64,000 bases of DNA from an uncultured Gammaproteobacteria bacterium (GTDB taxonomy: Bacteria; Patescibacteriota; Patescibacteriia; Patescibacteriales; UBA12465), in NCBI GenBank assembly GCA_964470695.1, contig CAYYDR010000002.1, forward strand, positions 72,401-136,400, in the 5' to 3' direction. The notes below the pieces were generated by a model. It saw nothing but the letters and a program-made list of their open reading frames with translations. It was not told the origin of the DNA and searched no databases. Below are positions 48,618-54,664 of this stretch, one piece after another (position 1 is the first letter of the stretch; each line of letters begins with the position of its first letter). The translations under genes were made by a program, and so were the position numbers.

Positions 48618-48646
48618 TTGACCGGGGGGATTCTTTTTGCTAAAAT
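48618..48646 (+). promoter_or_regulatory. promoter TTGACC-17-TAAAAT (with TGC upstream of the -10)
   Basis: TTGACC at 48618-48623, a 17-nt spacer, and TAAAAT at 48641-48646. It lies upstream of nrdR. Confidence 0.5.
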
Positions 48647-48687: not shown

Positions 48688-48703
48688 CCACAAAATATAG
48701 GGT
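48688..48703 (+). promoter_or_regulatory. candidate NrdR box 2
   Basis: CCACAAAATATAGGGT matches the consensus at 13/16 positions. It starts 33 nt after box 1, a tandem arrangement typical of NrdR sites. Confidence 0.5.
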
Positions 48704-48714
48704 TTATCAAATAT

Positions 48715-49173
48715 ATGAAATGCCCAATCTGCTATTTCCCCGATACTAAGGTCATTGATTCCCGGGTCGCTCCGGACGGCTTATCTATACGCCGCCGCCG
48801 CGAATGCCTGAAATGTGCTTTTCGCTTTTCTACTTATGAGGAAATAGAACTATTAGACCTTGCCATTGTAAAAAGAGACGGTCGGCGAGAATCTTACAGC
48901 CGCGAGAAGATGGTGAGCGGCTTAAAGAAATCTTGTGAGAAGCGGCCGATTACCGAAGACCGTTTTAAAAAATTAATTCATTCCATTGAACGAGATTTAC
49001 AGCGCCTTAAGAAGACAGAAATAACTTCTAAGCAAATTGGGCAAATGGTGATGAAGAATTTGAAGCGCGTTGACCCGGTCGCCTATATCCGCTACGCCTC
49101 AGTCTATGAATCTTTTAAGGACGCTCATGAATTTAGAAAAGAACTGAACAAGCTGATCAACGAGAAGAAGTAG
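48715..49173 (+). CDS. nrdR: transcriptional repressor NrdR
   Basis: MKCPICYFPDTKVIDSR zinc ribbon followed by an ATP-cone. ATG 48715 is used because the track's GTG 48667 start would cover the NrdR boxes. Confidence 0.9.
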   Translation: MKCPICYFPDTKVIDSRVAPDGLSIRRRRECLKCAFRFSTYEEIELLDLAIVKRDGRRESYSREKMVSGLKKSCEKRPITEDRFKKLIHSIERDLQRLKKTEITSKQIGQMVMKNLKRVDPVAYIRYASVYESFKDAHEFRKELNKLINEKK

Positions 49174-49366: not shown

Positions 49367-51436
49367 ATGTCTGAAACCATCAGTAAATTAATTAAAAGAT
49401 CAGGGGAGATTGTTAACTTTGATCAAGACAAAATTAGCAAGGCTATTTATAAGGCCGCTTTAGCAGTTGGGGTTGACGACAGGCATTTGGCCAAGAAATT
49501 AACCGATCAGGTTGTCATGCAGATGAATAAAAAGTTCCATAAGAGCAGCATCCCGGCCGTAGAAGAAGTTCAGGATATTGTTGAGGAAGTATTAATTGAA
49601 AACAAATTAATTAAGATTGCTAAGGCTTATATTTTGTATCGCGATCAGCATAGACAGTTGCGTGATATTAATACCGCTACTTCTGATGATAAGTTAATGG
49701 AAGATTATCTGGGCCGATCCGATTGGCGTCTTAAGGAAAACAGTAACATGAGTTTTTCGGTTCAGGGCCTGAATAATTATATTGCCTCTTCCATTTCCGC
49801 TCGCTACTGGCTTAATAAGATGTACCCGGAAAATATTCGCGCCGCCCATGTTAACGGCGATATCCATATCCATGATTTAGGGTTACTTGCTCCTTATTGT
49901 TGTGGCTGGGATCTTAAAGATCTTTTAATTCGTGGTTTTCGGGGCGTTAACGAGAAAGTTCAGAGTAATGCCCCTAAACATTTCCGCAGCGCTCTTGGCC
50001 AAATTATAAATTTCTTTTATACCATGCAAGGGGAGGCGGCTGGCGCCCAGGCCTTCGCCAATTTTGATACTTACTTAGCGCCTTTTATCCGTTATGATAA
50101 GTTAACTTATAAAGAAGTAAAGCAGGGGCTTCAGGAATTCATGTTTAATATTAATGTCCCGACTCGCGTTGGTTTTCAGACTCCTTTTACTAATGTTACT
50201 TTAGATGTTACTCCGTCGCCGATGATAGGCGAGGAAAGCGTGATTATCGGTGGTGAAGTAATGCCGGAAAAATATAAAGATTTTCAGGCGGAAATGGACA
50301 TGTTTAACCAGGCCTTTGCCGAAGTTATGTTGGCTGGCGATTCAACGGGACGCGTTTTCGGCTTCCCAATCCCGACTTATAATGTTGATAAGGATTTTGA
50401 TTGGGATAGAGAATGTTTAAAACCGGCTTGGGAGATGACCGCTAAATATGGCATCCCTTACTTTTCTAACTTCGTAAATTCGGACATGAACCGCGATGAC
50501 GCTCGTTCTATGTGTTGCCGGCTTCGTTTGGATAATAGAGAATTACGTAAGCGTGGCGGCGGCTTATTCGGCGCTAATCCTCTAACAGGATCGCTGGGCG
50601 TAGTAACTATTAACTTAGCTCGCATCGGTTACTTATCAAAGAGCCGGGAAGAGTTCAAGAAACGCCTAACTGATTTAATGGAAATTTCTAAAGAGAGCTT
50701 AGAAATAAAGCGCAAAATTATTGAGAAGTTTACTGATGATAGATTATACCCGTACTCCATGTTTTATCTAGACAATATTAAGGAGCGCTTTGGATCTTAT
50801 TGGAAGAATCATTTTTCTACTATCGGTATCAACGGCATGAATGAAGCGGTTGAAAATTTAATGGGCAAGGGAATTGCTACTCCGGAAGGGCACGCTTTTG
50901 CGGCTGAAATATTGGATTTTATGCGCGAGAGATTAATGGATTTTCAGAATGAAACCAATAATCTTTATAACTTAGAAGCGACTCCGGGCGAAGGTTGTAC
51001 CTATCGTTTCGCCAAGAAAGATCAGCAGCTTTATCCAGGCATTATCTGCGCTAATACCGATGCGGTTAAAAAACAGGGAGCTGACCCTTACTATACCAAC
51101 TCCTCTCATTTGCACGTTAGTTTCTCCGATGATATATTTTCCGCCCTTGATTTGCAGGATGACTTACAGATTAAATATACCGGCGGCACAGTTTTACACG
51201 GTTATTTAGGTGAGCGTCTGCCTAACGGCGAGGCCGCCAAGAAATTAGCCAAGAAAATTGTTGAGTCTTATCGTTTGCCTTATTTCACTATCACCCCGAC
51301 TTTCTCCATTTGCCCTAAGCATGGTTATTTATCAGGCGAACATAAATATTGTCCGAAATGCGATGACGAAATTGGCTATCAGGAAAATATTGCCGACGTC
51401 CGTTCCGCTAATAATCTTGAGCAAAAAGCCCTTTAA
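49367..51436 (+). CDS. nrdD: anaerobic ribonucleoside-triphosphate reductase (class III), large fragment lacking the glycyl-radical motif
   Basis: N-terminal ATP-cone, SMCCRLRLD active-site loop, and a C-terminal zinc site CPKH...CPKC. The ORF stops 25 codons after CPKC with no RVxGY motif. Confidence 0.9.
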   Translation: MSETISKLIKRSGEIVNFDQDKISKAIYKAALAVGVDDRHLAKKLTDQVVMQMNKKFHKSSIPAVEEVQDIVEEVLIENKLIKIAKAYILYRDQHRQLRDINTATSDDKLMEDYLGRSDWRLKENSNMSFSVQGLNNYIASSISARYWLNKMYPENIRAAHVNGDIHIHDLGLLAPYCCGWDLKDLLIRGFRGVNEKVQSNAPKHFRSALGQIINFFYTMQGEAAGAQAFANFDTYLAPFIRYDKLTYKEVKQGLQEFMFNINVPTRVGFQTPFTNVTLDVTPSPMIGEESVIIGGEVMPEKYKDFQAEMDMFNQAFAEVMLAGDSTGRVFGFPIPTYNVDKDFDWDRECLKPAWEMTAKYGIPYFSNFVNSDMNRDDARSMCCRLRLDNRELRKRGGGLFGANPLTGSLGVVTINLARIGYLSKSREEFKKRLTDLMEISKESLEIKRKIIEKFTDDRLYPYSMFYLDNIKERFGSYWKNHFSTIGINGMNEAVENLMGKGIATPEGHAFAAEILDFMRERLMDFQNETNNLYNLEATPGEGCTYRFAKKDQQLYPGIICANTDAVKKQGADPYYTNSSHLHVSFSDDIFSALDLQDDLQIKYTGGTVLHGYLGERLPNGEAAKKLAKKIVESYRLPYFTITPTFSICPKHGYLSGEHKYCPKCDDEIGYQENIADVRSANNLEQKAL

Positions 51437-51489
51437 TCCAGGCATTTGTAATTTATCTAATTATTATCTATAATTTAAGTAATAATCAT

Positions 51490-51624
51490 ATGAGCCCAAT
51501 CCAAACCCAAAGACAGGAATGCATTGTTTACAGCCGTGTCGTCGGCTGGTTGACTCCAGTGAAGAATTATAATCCGGGGAAAGCTTCGGAGTATAAGGAC
51601 CGAAAGACTTTCAAGGTTTGCTAA
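51490..51624 (+). CDS. 44-aa ORF encoding the NrdD glycyl-radical C-terminal motif (detached)
   Basis: MSPIQTQRQECIVYSRVVGWLTPVKNYNPGKASEYKDRKTFKVC matches the NrdD C-terminal pattern (E)VYSRVVGY..PV..WN.GK..E(F/Y).(E/D)RK.(F/Y). It is in a different frame from nrdD and is absent from the ORF track because it is under 60 aa. Confidence 0.65.
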   Translation: MSPIQTQRQECIVYSRVVGWLTPVKNYNPGKASEYKDRKTFKVC

Positions 51625-51668
51625 TAGTTTTATCGTTCCGTTGTTTTATTAATAGCGGACTCTAGTTT

Positions 51669-52400
51669 ATGATTATCGGCGGTTTAGAGAAATTAACCCT
51701 TTTAGACTACCCCGATCATCTAGCGGCTATCATCTTTACCCAAGGCTGTAATTTCCGATGCCACTTTTGCTACAACCCAATGCTTGTCTGGCCCAGTATC
51801 GGGACGGACGGAAAAAATAAAGAAGAAAAAGGTTTTTCACCTCTGTCTCCCGAAAACCTTTTTCTTTTTTTGCGGGAAAGATTTGGCCGTTTAGAAGGGG
51901 TAGTTATTACCGGCGGGGAGCCTACTTTGCATCCTGACTTGCCGGATTTTATTCGTCAAATAAAAGAGATCGGCTATCTAGTTAAACTAGACACTAACGG
52001 CACAAATCCTAAAATGCTGGAAGGGCTCATTAAGTCCCAGCTTATTGATTATATTGCTATGGATATTAAAGCCCCGTTAGAGCGATATAAAGAAGTCGTG
52101 GGGGCCGATATCAACTGTAATAATATTCAAAAAAGTGTTAAGATTATAATGTCTAGCGGCCTGCCTTATGAGTTTAGAACTACGGTTGTGCCCGGTCTTT
52201 TGGCGAGTAATGATTTTGAGGCGATGGGAAAAATTATAGAAGGGGCTAGCAAATGGTATTTACAGAATTTTAAGTCCGATACGGAATTAGTTGATGCTAA
52301 ATTCCAGACCCAAGCCTCTTATAGTTCTAAAGAGATGAAAGAATTCGCCGCTATCGGCCGCCAGCATGTCTCCTTGTGCGAAGTGCGCGGTGATATTTAA
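51669..52400 (+). CDS. nrdG: anaerobic ribonucleotide reductase activating protein (radical SAM)
   Basis: CNFRCHFCYN (CxxxCxxC), VITGGEPTL, and a position next to nrdD. Confidence 0.88.
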   Translation: MIIGGLEKLTLLDYPDHLAAIIFTQGCNFRCHFCYNPMLVWPSIGTDGKNKEEKGFSPLSPENLFLFLRERFGRLEGVVITGGEPTLHPDLPDFIRQIKEIGYLVKLDTNGTNPKMLEGLIKSQLIDYIAMDIKAPLERYKEVVGADINCNNIQKSVKIIMSSGLPYEFRTTVVPGLLASNDFEAMGKIIEGASKWYLQNFKSDTELVDAKFQTQASYSSKEMKEFAAIGRQHVSLCEVRGDI

Positions 52401-52654: not shown

Positions 52655-54664
52655 ATGAAGGACATAGCGGTTTTTGCCCAGACAACTTATCGCAACGAAT
52701 TTAAAAAATTCGGAATTAAAACTGACGACCGCCGCCGCCATATGTATTTGATTGGGAAAACCGGCATGGGCAAATCAACTATTTTAGAAAACATGATAGT
52801 GGATGATATCAGGGCGGGGCATGGCGTAGCTGTAGTTGACCCGCATGGCGATTTAGCGGAAAAGATTATTGAGTTTATTCCGGCCGATAGGATTCAGGAT
52901 GTTGTTTATTTTAATCCTTCGGACATAAATTTCCCGATTGCTTTTAATGTTGTAGAACAGGTGGAACCGCATTTACGACATTTAGTCGCTTCAGGCTTAA
53001 TCGGCGTTTTTCAAAAACTTTGGGCCGATTCCTGGGGACCACGCTTAGAATATATTTTACGTAATGCCGTTTTAGCGATTTTGGATTTTCCGGGATCCAC
53101 TCTGTTAGGCGTTGTTCGTATGCTATCCGATAAGAATTATCGCAAGCGGGTAGTCGCTAACATTAAAGATCCGGTTGTTAAAGCTTTTTGGGAGAGGGAA
53201 TTTTCCGGCTATGCCGATAAGTTTGCAGCTGAGGCGGTCTCCCCTATTCAGAATAAAGTCGGCCAGTTTTTATCCAGTTCTTTAATGAGAAATGTTATCG
53301 GCCAGGTTAAATCTTCTATTGATATCCGCGACATCATGGATAATGGCAAGATTTTAATCATGAATTTATCCAAAGGCCGCATTGGCGAAGATAATTCGGC
53401 ACTCCTAGGCGCGATGATGATCACTAAAATTCAATTAGCGGCCATGAGCCGGGTTGACGTGCCGGAAAAACAGCGCCGCGATTTTTATCTTTATATTGAT
53501 GAGTTTCAAAATTTTTCTACGGACTCCTTTGCTAATATTTTGTCAGAAGCCCGTAAATATCGCTTAAATTTAATTTTAGCCCATCAGTACATTGAACAGT
53601 TAAGCGAAAAGGTTAAGCCAGCTGTCTTTGGTAACGTTGGTACGATGGTCGTTTTTCGGGTTGGTGCAGCTGACGCGGAAGAACTAGTTAAGGAATTTAC
53701 GCCGACATTCACGGAAGAGGATATTGTTAACCTGCCTAAATATGAAATGTATTTAAAACTGATGATAGATGGCATCGCCTCCTCGCCTTTTTCGGCCAAA
53801 GGTCTGCCTCCCTTAACTGAAGAAGAGAAAACTGGCAACACTCAGAAAGTTATTGATTATTCTCGGGAAAAGTATGCTTCAGGGCGAGAAGAGGTTGAAG
53901 AAAAGATTATGAGCTGGCATGAAAATTATGATGAGTCAACGGTCAATAAAGAGGTTAAGAATATTCCGACTGTCTTCGCATCAGTTCAATCAGAAGCGCG
54001 CCCTCAGGCCGCTCCAGCGAGCTTAGTGGTCAGAGAAACTACGACCACTTCTACTTCTACTTCCACCTCAGCCTCTGTTTCTGCTCCGGCCGCCGCGCCT
54101 GTTCCTAATAAAATTACCCCTCGTCCTGCCAACCAGTCTTCTGCCGAGCGCCCCGTGGCGGCGACGGCTACCACCCGTCCCGTTTTAGGTCAGAATTCCA
54201 CAACTACTAAATCTAGTACCCAGTCTTTCCGCCAGTCGGTTAAAAGCGGCTATGAGGCTACCTGCGCTAGCTGTGGTCAGGCGACCATGACGGTGTTTAA
54301 ACCAGATGGTGTTAGGCCGGTTTATTGTAAAGACTGTTTAAGTAAAAAAAAAGAGGAAAAACGGCAGGAGCTAGAGAAGCGACAAGCCGCTAAGGCTGAA
54401 GAGCGCCGTCGTCTAGAAGATACTGAAACAGCAGTTTCTAAAGTAGCTGCCCCGTCTTTATCGCTTAATGATTTAAAGACCATGGCGCCGCGTGATTTTC
54501 GCGGTCGGGCCATGCCTATTCATCCCGCCGCCGCTAAAAATGACGAATCAGCTAGTAGCGGAATAAAGAGCGCTCCTGTTAATTTAGGGGGAGCTGGTCA
54601 TCATAATGAGGAAAAAGAATTAAAAGAAGGGGAAGATATTCTCATTACCAATAATAGTTATTAA
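52655..54664 (+). CDS. VirD4/TraD-like (type IV coupling protein-like) P-loop ATPase with low-complexity linker and C-terminal CxxC-x17-CxxC zinc ribbon
   Basis: Walker A GKTGMGKST, Walker B LYIDEFQNF, and LILAHQY. The tail CASCGQATMTVFKPDGVRPVYCKDC has exactly 17 residues between its CxxC pairs. Confidence 0.75.
   Translation: MKDIAVFAQTTYRNEFKKFGIKTDDRRRHMYLIGKTGMGKSTILENMIVDDIRAGHGVAVVDPHGDLAEKIIEFIPADRIQDVVYFNPSDINFPIAFNVVEQVEPHLRHLVASGLIGVFQKLWADSWGPRLEYILRNAVLAILDFPGSTLLGVVRMLSDKNYRKRVVANIKDPVVKAFWEREFSGYADKFAAEAVSPIQNKVGQFLSSSLMRNVIGQVKSSIDIRDIMDNGKILIMNLSKGRIGEDNSALLGAMMITKIQLAAMSRVDVPEKQRRDFYLYIDEFQNFSTDSFANILSEARKYRLNLILAHQYIEQLSEKVKPAVFGNVGTMVVFRVGAADAEELVKEFTPTFTEEDIVNLPKYEMYLKLMIDGIASSPFSAKGLPPLTEEEKTGNTQKVIDYSREKYASGREEVEEKIMSWHENYDESTVNKEVKNIPTVFASVQSEARPQAAPASLVVRETTTTSTSTSTSASVSAPAAAPVPNKITPRPANQSSAERPVAATATTRPVLGQNSTTTKSSTQSFRQSVKSGYEATCASCGQATMTVFKPDGVRPVYCKDCLSKKKEEKRQELEKRQAAKAEERRRLEDTETAVSKVAAPSLSLNDLKTMAPRDFRGRAMPIHPAAAKNDESASSGIKSAPVNLGGAGHHNEEKELKEGEDILITNNSY

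Follow-up and report, generated by a model that had tools for sequence, protein, structure and literature searches.

An anaerobic ribonucleotide reductase encoded in two parts in Patescibacteria, with the glycyl-radical loop on a separate 44-residue open reading frame

The DNA considered here is a stretch of 64,000 nucleotides (positions 72,401 to 136,400, forward strand, of contig CAYYDR010000002.1, assembly GCA_964470695.1), which we call the window; all coordinates are counted from its first letter. It carries the genes of an anaerobic, class III ribonucleotide reductase (RNR), in which the catalytic subunit NrdD is laid out as two open reading frames (ORFs): a large chain, nrdD-L, that ends shortly after its zinc ribbon, and a peptide of 44 amino acids (aa), nrdD-S, that carries the glycyl-radical loop. 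The activase gene nrdG follows. The features of the locus are these:

49367..51436, + strand: nrdD-L, class III RNR catalytic subunit, 689 aa, with ATP-cone, NRDD barrel, finger loop and zinc ribbon
50510..50521, + strand: finger-loop motif MCCR (M382-R385) with the catalytic thiyl-radical cysteine(s), placed from the translation and alignments
51311..51361, + strand: zinc ribbon CPKH-x10-CPKC (C649, H652, C662, C665), kept on nrdD-L, with CPKC at 51350-51361
51362..51433, + strand: clade-specific C-terminal tail of nrdD-L, 24 aa, DDEIGYQENIADVRSANNLEQKAL, followed by a TAA stop
51437..51489, + strand: spacer of 53 nt with a sigma-70-like candidate promoter, from a promoter scan
51490..51624, + strand: nrdD-S, glycyl-radical peptide, 44 aa from an ATG start, MSPIQTQRQECIVYSRVVGWLTPVKNYNPGKASEYKDRKTFKVC, matching the end of the Pfam NRDD model
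51544-51546, + strand: codon of the predicted radical glycine, G19 of nrdD-S, in the motif YSRVVGW
51637..51659, + strand: 9-bp hairpin between nrdD-S and nrdG, from a terminator-like scan, minimum free energy (MFE) -9.9 kcal/mol
51669..52400, + strand: nrdG, radical S-adenosylmethionine (SAM) activase, 243 aa, Pfam Radical_SAM 2.7e-23, starting 44 nt past nrdD-S
48715..49173, + strand: nrdR, transcriptional repressor of the nrd genes, 152 aa with its start at MKCPICY, Pfam Zn_ribbon_NrdR 6e-20 and ATP-cone 1e-19, directly 5' of the operon and preceded by ftsZ

Identity of the two parts

The initial annotation of this stretch placed the end of nrdD at 51436, its CPKC at 51350-51361, and the small ORF at 51490-51624 beyond a 53-nt gap and in a different frame. 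We find all of these positions confirmed to the base, with nrdD-L in frame 2 and nrdD-S in frame 1 (position mod 3). The two ORFs tile the NrdD family models, so that nrdD-S is exactly the glycyl-radical loop that is absent from nrdD-L. In the Pfam model NRDD (PF13597), nrdD-L covers positions 1-532 of 562 (E 1.5e-183, 611.9 bits, cut-off 26.2) and nrdD-S positions 530-562 (E 5.8e-7). The same division is seen in NCBIfam NF006126, where nrdD-L lies at 3-664 of 684 (1027 bits, cut-off 548) and nrdD-S at 649-683; nrdD-L also scores 515.6 bits against TIGR02487 (cut-off 326). The earlier identification of the small ORF as an NrdD C-terminus with its radical glycine is thus borne out by both model collections. 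Family matches of nrdD-S were to NrdD models only, with none to the C-terminus of pyruvate formate-lyase. A phmmer search of the PDB with the 44-aa sequence gave no match, and a profile search aligned nrdD-S to residues 616-645 of Thermotoga maritima NrdD. NCBIfam holds no model dedicated to the radical peptide.

No RVxG[YFW] glycyl-radical motif occurs in the 689-aa nrdD-L or in its 120 closest homologues. The NrdD-type motif SRVVGW is supplied on the separate 44-aa ORF, in which R16, V17, V18, G19 and W20 are invariant, and we found no other ORF with a glycyl-radical domain within the window. The remaining catalytic parts are kept on nrdD-L. C383, C384 and R385 of MCCR, a type of finger-loop motif described in PMC9669993, are invariant in our alignments A3, A4 and A6, and zinc-ribbon residues C649, C662 and C665 are invariant or nearly so in A3-A6. 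The predicted zinc ligands, C649-x2-H652-x10-C662-x2-C665, have a His where the second Cys would be, a replacement shared by many relatives. The downstream nrdG is intact, as first noted (Radical_SAM 2.7e-23; NCBIfam TIGR02495, NrdG2, 208.9 bits, cut-off 131), and by family assignment its product should be the activase that makes the glycyl radical on nrdD-S.

Both parts carry sequence that one-piece enzymes lack. In 63 one-piece relatives the distance from the first zinc cysteine to [YF]SR, where the radical motif starts, is always 22 or 24 residues, and the radical glycine lies about 10 residues past the CxxC, so that the spacing of 8-12 residues given initially was roughly right. Because this spacing is invariable, the tail of nrdD-L and the N-terminus of the peptide are additions specific to the split forms. 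In the tail, conservation is limited to the first six residues, D(D/E)EIGY, the remainder being variable; among relatives the portion beyond CPKCDEEIGY has 3-35 aa, and the shortest tail has 9 residues after CPKC. The peptide N-terminus is conserved as MSPIxTxRQEC and contributes nine extra residues before the radical core.

One of our MAFFT alignments, A4, put the tail DEEIGY (51362-51379, D666-Y671) onto the RVVGY of one-piece enzymes, which made G670 and Y671 seem "invariant". This pairing of EIGY with RVVGY is probably an artefact, and A4 was discarded. The pairing is nevertheless one of two points in favour of the idea that NrdD-L works without the peptide, through another radical site such as Gly670 of the EIGY tail or through another partner, with the peptide acting as a regulator, decoy or optional spare; the other is the strong conservation of DEEIGY itself. 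However, EIGY has no Arg-Val radical context and follows the CxxC at 5 residues instead of about 11, and other split lineages have tails without any Gly-Tyr, e.g. CPKCDAELLAKKANK. The peptide, for its part, retains every invariant residue of the radical domain and shares an operon with nrdG. We consider it improbable that NrdD-L acts by itself.

Distribution, selection and expression

The split extends well beyond the window. The 120 closest NrdD protein clusters (85-100% identical), which come from NCBI, JGI, ENA and Logan assemblies named Falkowbacteria, Patescibacteria or Saccharimonadales, all end without a glycyl-radical motif; their length is 671-703 aa, rising to about 1000 aa where inteins are present, and they typically end in ...CPKCDEEIGYxExVxEIRxANQ. 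Searching with the peptide, we obtained 136 clusters; the 120 that were listed all consist of stand-alone proteins, 41-65 aa in length. In the 90% cluster to which the peptide itself belongs, the 116 members go under the names "anaerobic ribonucleoside-triphosphate reductase" or "hypothetical protein". The exact 44-aa peptide, in the same gene order, recurs on four other contigs (JGI, ENA, Logan). For a metagenome-assembled genome, a sequencing or assembly artefact is always conceivable a priori, yet that is all that speaks for one here; with identical copies on four other contigs and the split seen in dozens of independent assemblies, we give this explanation practically no weight.

A scan of GTDB with one genome per species detected close relatives of the NrdD-L C-terminus in 315 genomes, of which the best 80 were taken. 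These gave 77 usable loci: the window, the four near-identical contigs and about 72 species genomes (Falkowbacteria/Patescibacteria). Many of the species genomes of this clade (L005, L009-L012, L016-L018 and others) are titled "uncultured Gammaproteobacteria bacterium", a title that in ENA records is evidently a placeholder or mislabel. The presence of the same split in related genomes had been raised as a check on the initial annotation, and nrdD is split in 77 of the 77 loci. The distance from the nrdD-L stop to the nrdD-S ATG ranges from 13 to 193 nt (median 69), the relative frame of nrdD-S is 0, 1 or 2 in 34, 23 and 20 loci, and the nrdD-S start is ATG in 76/76.

We compared all pairs of 76 loci by the ratio of non-synonymous to synonymous differences per site (pN/pS); synonymous sites are saturated, with pS about 0.8. 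The ratio is 0.096 for the whole peptide, 0.12 for its N-terminal nine residues and 0.088 for its radical-domain core, compared with 0.177 for the 120 residues of NrdD-L that precede the tail. The lowest value, 0.073, belongs to the first six tail residues, DEEIGY, which is thus strongly conserved. Both parts are under strong purifying selection across this Patescibacteria clade (Falkowbacteria and relatives). All parts of NrdD are present across two chains that are encoded and initiated separately and are each constrained, and the activase is there as well.

These data bear directly on the possibility that nrdD is a decaying pseudogene and the 44-aa ORF a remnant of the broken gene, or, as the initial annotation had put it, that a small insertion inactivated it. 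A stop codon and a frame change do part the two pieces, and our view of RNR genes was confined to the window. However, the same architecture is found in 77/77 loci and in all 120 closest protein clusters, the peptide evolves at a pN/pS of about 0.1 at saturated pS, its ATG is invariant, and the catalytic motifs and nrdG are intact. The clade-wide split, the invariant ATG and the low pN/pS therefore exclude sequencing error and pseudogene decay, and an inactivating insertion is scarcely credible when both parts are so strongly constrained.

Much the same can be said of a rejoining of the two parts into a one-piece NrdD by a small intron, by programmed ribosomal bypass (as in T4 gene 60) or by frameshifting. 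In this genome, removal of 146 nt between two GAA codons restores the frame, and the frame arithmetic of the initial annotation was correct on this point. The discrete insert that it envisaged did not stand, because spacer length and frame vary freely among relatives and the GAA...GAA boundaries are therefore coincidental to this genome. For the same reason, a spacer of 13-193 nt in all three relative frames rules out a fixed frameshift or a bypass of the T4 gene 60 type. An Rfam scan of 50800-52000 at E up to 10 gave chance-level matches only, none of them in the spacer, and the putative 164-nt "insert" folds no better than shuffled sequence (z = +0.56). The would-be take-off codon has no following stop, and the tail stays conserved as protein. 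A promoter motif lies inside the "insert", and in some relatives nrdG or 2.4 kb of other genes separates the parts. With an invariant ATG as well, the RNA-level or translational bypass raised at first is rejected, and we give rejoining as little credence as decay.

The spacer holds a candidate promoter with a -35 element TTGTAA (51446-51451), a 17-nt gap and a -10 element TATAAT (51469-51474) that ends 15 nt before the ATG, which makes for a very short leader. Conservation of the spacer exceeds that of the coding sequence on either side, both in the window and in its four closest relatives. The pattern TTGnnn-N16-18-TATAAT occurs in 48 of 72 non-redundant spacers, at about 7.7 per kb; elsewhere in these loci, counting both strands, the rate is 0.053 per kb, which makes an enrichment of about 145-fold. 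Its -10 element lies either 8-21 nt ahead of the ATG, giving a short leader, or 44-79 nt ahead, where the leader often forms a hairpin. We see no clear Shine-Dalgarno sequence in front of nrdD-S, nor in front of nrdD, nrdG or nrdR in this genome. In loci with long spacers (e.g. L011, L012, L027, L016, L025, L026, L044; -10 at 44-79 nt) the leader often contains an inverted repeat, and in some of these an AGGAGG-like sequence is part of the 3' arm, suggestive of regulated initiation of translation.

Since the gap between nrdD-S and nrdG is usually only 4-18 nt, and nrdG follows the peptide gene in essentially all related loci, the two genes form a unit, and the internal promoter likely drives both, besides any read-through from nrdD. 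The 9-bp hairpin at 51637-51659 may serve as a weak attenuator or affect RNA stability. At the same position L001-L004 have a hairpin too, of other sequence, and the window's hairpin is not a general feature because most relatives have only 4-18 nt there. In one sublineage, L059-L082 (e.g. L063, L065, L068, L070), the gap from the peptide stop to nrdG is 60-97 nt, GC-rich and strongly folded (MFE -17 to -27 kcal/mol), with a recurring core GCGGGGA..GGCCGTTG..ATCCCGGCGGCTCC. It has no Rfam match at gathering thresholds and may be an undescribed cis-regulatory RNA upstream of nrdG.

A search for NrdR boxes (ACACWATATATWGTGT, up to 3 mismatches) found none in the spacer. One NrdR-box-like site lies at 48688-48703 (CCACAAAATATAGGGT, 3 mismatches), between a promoter-like site at 48618-48646 and the start of nrdR, and the count of such matches in the window is at chance level. 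The 152-aa form of nrdR was also called in L001. On the other side of the operon, two genes 3' of nrdG, 52655-54664 encodes a 669-aa protein whose counterpart in L001 has TrwB/TraG-type coupling-protein matches (T4SS-DNA_transf, TrwB_AAD_bind), then a C-terminal zinc-finger match and a low-complexity S/T/A-rich region.

Relatives, proposed mechanism and viral copies

We found more distant lineages by searching representatives of 50%-identity clusters, and in these the position of the peptide gene is not fixed. In L086 (NrdD 57% identical) the order is nrdD, nrdG and then a 46-aa peptide, VSKKQKCEVYSRVVGY..., and in L085 (51% identical) the peptide gene, of 50 aa, is found 2.4 kb upstream of nrdD and separated from it by seven genes. 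In L087 and L090 it stands directly after nrdD or overlaps the nrdD end; in L090 the NrdD tail and the long peptide N-terminus both resemble amphipathic helices, and these may form a zipper. Because the peptide gene is found on either side of nrdG or kilobases off, it is an independent gene.

Sixty-three of the best 150 representatives (43-75% identical) are one-piece enzymes and at least 67 lack a radical domain, with several tail types; the other 20, mostly fragments, lack the anchor motif used in sorting. A rough neighbour-joining tree of 58 representatives suggests at least 11 changes between split and one-piece forms, but the coverage filter and possible partial genes make it too weak to claim multiple origins. 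Among the one-piece relatives, P0283, P0289, P0304, P0310, P0333, P0336, P0340 and P0346 carry beyond the radical loop a further C-terminal domain of 130-180 aa that resembles thioredoxin/glutaredoxin and has a TCPNCK motif, and P0290 appears to be fused to an NrdG-like domain.

The NrdD genes of this group are also heavily invaded by inteins (P0034, P0056, P0082, many of P0241-P0390; L017, L076), with proteins of 1004-1879 aa that match in up to four separate stretches and have Intein_splicing or LAGLIDADG matches. This abundance, and a nearly invariant Cys11 ahead of the radical motif, could point to post-translational ligation, in which split-intein trans-splicing or another ligase would yield a single mature chain. 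However, the tail (24 aa here; 9 after CPKC in the shortest relatives) and the 9-residue N-terminus are too short for known inteins, and a Pfam scan at E up to 0.1 found no intein family for either ORF of the window. Cys11 is preceded by R-Q-E, not by His-Asn, and it is not an extein +1 residue made by the split because one-piece homologues have an equivalent Cys (CEVYSRVVGY). Viral orphan copies of the peptide, described below, would moreover have no partner fragment. Ligation thus seems highly improbable.

We favour, with a probability of about 0.85, a naturally split class III RNR made of two separately translated polypeptides, NrdD-L and NrdD-S, together with NrdG. Of the explanations offered initially, the two-polypeptide enzyme with a detachable radical peptide is the one that the comparative evidence strongly supports. 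A structure model is compatible with it. We fused the L and S ORFs of the window as one chain for AlphaFold2 (AF2), with an alignment (A5) of one-piece homologues and stand-alone peptides, and obtained a mean predicted local distance difference test score (pLDDT) of 90.5 and a predicted template-modelling score (pTM) of 0.83. Peptide residues 11-44 (pLDDT 89-95) form a beta-hairpin (701-706, 709-712) followed by a helix, and the radical glycine 708, equivalent to peptide Gly19, is at the hairpin tip. The NrdD-L tail and the first ten peptide residues have a pLDDT of about 50-69 and are flexible or undetermined in the model. Its best PDB matches are the class III RNRs 9d3x, 8p23, 4coi and 1h79 (Streptococcus thermophilus, Prevotella copri, T. 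maritima, T4).

In the mechanism that we propose, NrdG, a radical-SAM enzyme, would act on the free or the docked peptide and take the hydrogen from its Gly19. The peptide would dock non-covalently in the NrdD-L barrel as a beta-hairpin beside Cys383/384, and the radical would be relayed to the cysteine and then to the substrate, as in one-piece NrdD. The conserved DEEIGY tail and the MSPIxTxRQE N-terminus may hold the chains together or serve NrdG recognition. As NrdD-L has no glycine loop of its own, the peptide would be an obligate subunit and not a spare. Oxygen cleaves glycyl-radical proteins at the radical glycine. Since the cleavage falls there, a split enzyme would lose only a cheap 44-aa peptide, and it is tempting to speculate that the split renders the oxygen-labile part disposable, with the peptide replaceable from its own promoter.

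Several points weigh against this interpretation. The peptide, the complex of the two chains, the radical and the activity are all predicted, and the roles suggested for the NrdD-L tail and the conserved peptide N-terminus are tentative. The promoter, though strongly enriched, is a consensus match predicted from sequence only, and the AF2 model is a consistency check rather than proof because its alignment holds one-piece enzymes. RNR genes were seen only within the window, so that a further RNR could be encoded elsewhere in the genome, and in the distant split lineages L088 and L089 no peptide gene was found within 4 kb.

Stand-alone radical modules also occur in viral sequences. A scan of IMG/VR viral contigs with the peptide alignment gave 158 relatives, and at 71 of the best 80 loci examined we found a short stand-alone radical ORF of NrdD type, and neither an NrdD core nor NrdG turned up within 10 kb either side (tblastn with seven diverse NrdD cores over 1,039 kb; most contigs were seen in part and are possibly incomplete). 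These orphan loci fall in L091-L170 and L252-L328 (e.g. L252:10001-10129, L260, L285, L289, L292). They take two forms, peptides of 40-60 aa, up to 84-86% identical to that of the window, and proteins of 109-120 aa with a zinc ribbon (CHDC...KCEAC) and the radical loop. In L100 the orphan gene lies between tail-fibre genes and an amidase/endolysin, a phage context. A search for viral NrdD cores gave one locus with the single NrdD-L sequence and 259 with an alignment query, and the orphan-bearing contigs are absent among the best 80 of these 259.

A named example is the archaeal virus ANMV-1 (GenBank KP703175.1), in which a lone 144-aa ORF with zinc ribbon and radical domain (AJP62049.1; L329:3186-3620) is annotated "anaerobic ribonucleoside triphosphate reductase". 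Its authors took it as an oxygen-sensitive RNR (PMC4372165); tblastn over the whole 38.5-kb record found no NrdD core or NrdG. The GenBank phage collection gave only two weak matches, so that the evidence for viral orphans comes mainly from metagenomes. Should the pattern hold, viruses carrying the radical module alone make sense only if the module acts in trans with host proteins, and one may speculate that viruses exploit the same modularity through orphan copies.

Taken further, the peptide could be a "radical cofactor peptide" that exists by itself and can be exchanged: NrdG would activate it, it would dock without a covalent bond into a catalytic subunit that lacks a radical, and it would be replaced after oxygen damage. 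Orphans of phages and archaeal viruses, whether peptides of 40-60 aa or proteins of 110-145 aa with zinc ribbon and radical domain, would then re-arm or take over the host reductase. We favour this extension only tentatively, at somewhat less than even odds. If it is true, GrcA/YfiD would have a counterpart in RNR, and a new kind of auxiliary gene would have to be recognised in viruses; functional orphan copies would represent a new type of auxiliary metabolic gene in which the virus supplies only the consumable radical part.

The two-polypeptide enzyme has consequences of its own. A split selected across a clade would mean that the radical loop is able to function as a separate 44-residue subunit. 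nrdD-S would then be a minimal natural NrdG substrate and offer a clean system for the exit and re-entry of the radical domain from the barrel, which are hard to study in one-piece enzymes. The split may also be a cheap way for the ultra-small Patescibacteria to repair an essential enzyme that is oxygen-sensitive. There is a warning for annotation as well: hundreds of "NrdD" entries are radical-less large subunits, or peptides of 40-60 aa that are mislabelled as full enzymes or called hypothetical.

Comparison with known systems

The split NrdD is real, ancient and widespread in Patescibacteria, and apparently undescribed. To our knowledge, glycyl-radical enzymes carry the radical glycine on the chain of the active site, with one exception, GrcA for pyruvate formate-lyase (PFL). 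Within open-access papers and bioRxiv, we found no description of a split NrdD or a stand-alone RNR radical peptide. The large RNR phylogeny papers do not mention a split NrdD; one of them dropped sequences outside 400-1100 residues.

The likeness to GrcA/YfiD, drawn in the initial annotation, is that of a small stand-alone radical-loop protein that must dock in a large barrel and is activated by that enzyme's activase, and to this extent it stands. GrcA, however, is homologous to PFL and not to NrdD, and nrdD-S is not homologous to GrcA. GrcA is found alongside a full-length PFL with a radical domain of its own, and it acts only after oxygen damage, whereas the peptide is the only radical loop in the window for the adjoining NrdD-L. 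The role of a spare therefore does not carry over, as the peptide would be obligate in the cell; the viral orphans come closer to spares. A 2026 review states that formate-lyases alone among the classes of glycyl-radical enzymes have small spare-part proteins (PMC13450708), a statement that an exchangeable RNR peptide, if true, would contradict.

Compared with the one-piece NrdD and NrdG of T4, Escherichia coli, T. maritima, P. copri and S. thermophilus, the locus has the same domains in the same order with an adjoining activase. What differs is that the radical loop is a 44-aa gene of its own, with its own start codon and candidate promoter, and that the large chain has an extra tail and the peptide an extra 9-residue N-terminus. 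Another parallel in layout is the split class II RNR NrdJa/NrdJb of Pseudomonas aeruginosa and the Thermus phage phiYS40, in which two consecutive ORFs part the barrel from a C-terminal module. That is a different, B12-dependent RNR class and a different module, the C-terminal piece of NrdJ being a few hundred residues long with redox cysteines and a zinc finger. The NrdJa/NrdJb split is cited in PMC9669993 and PMC3653736.

Phage nrdD genes are also known in pieces, through the T4 group I intron with I-TevII, inteins and the fragments of phiAS4 (PMC3653736). In those cases the pieces go back to introns, inteins or homing endonucleases, or to unexplained recent breaks in single genomes. The patescibacterial break, by contrast, involves no mobile element and is ancient, clade-wide and under selection.

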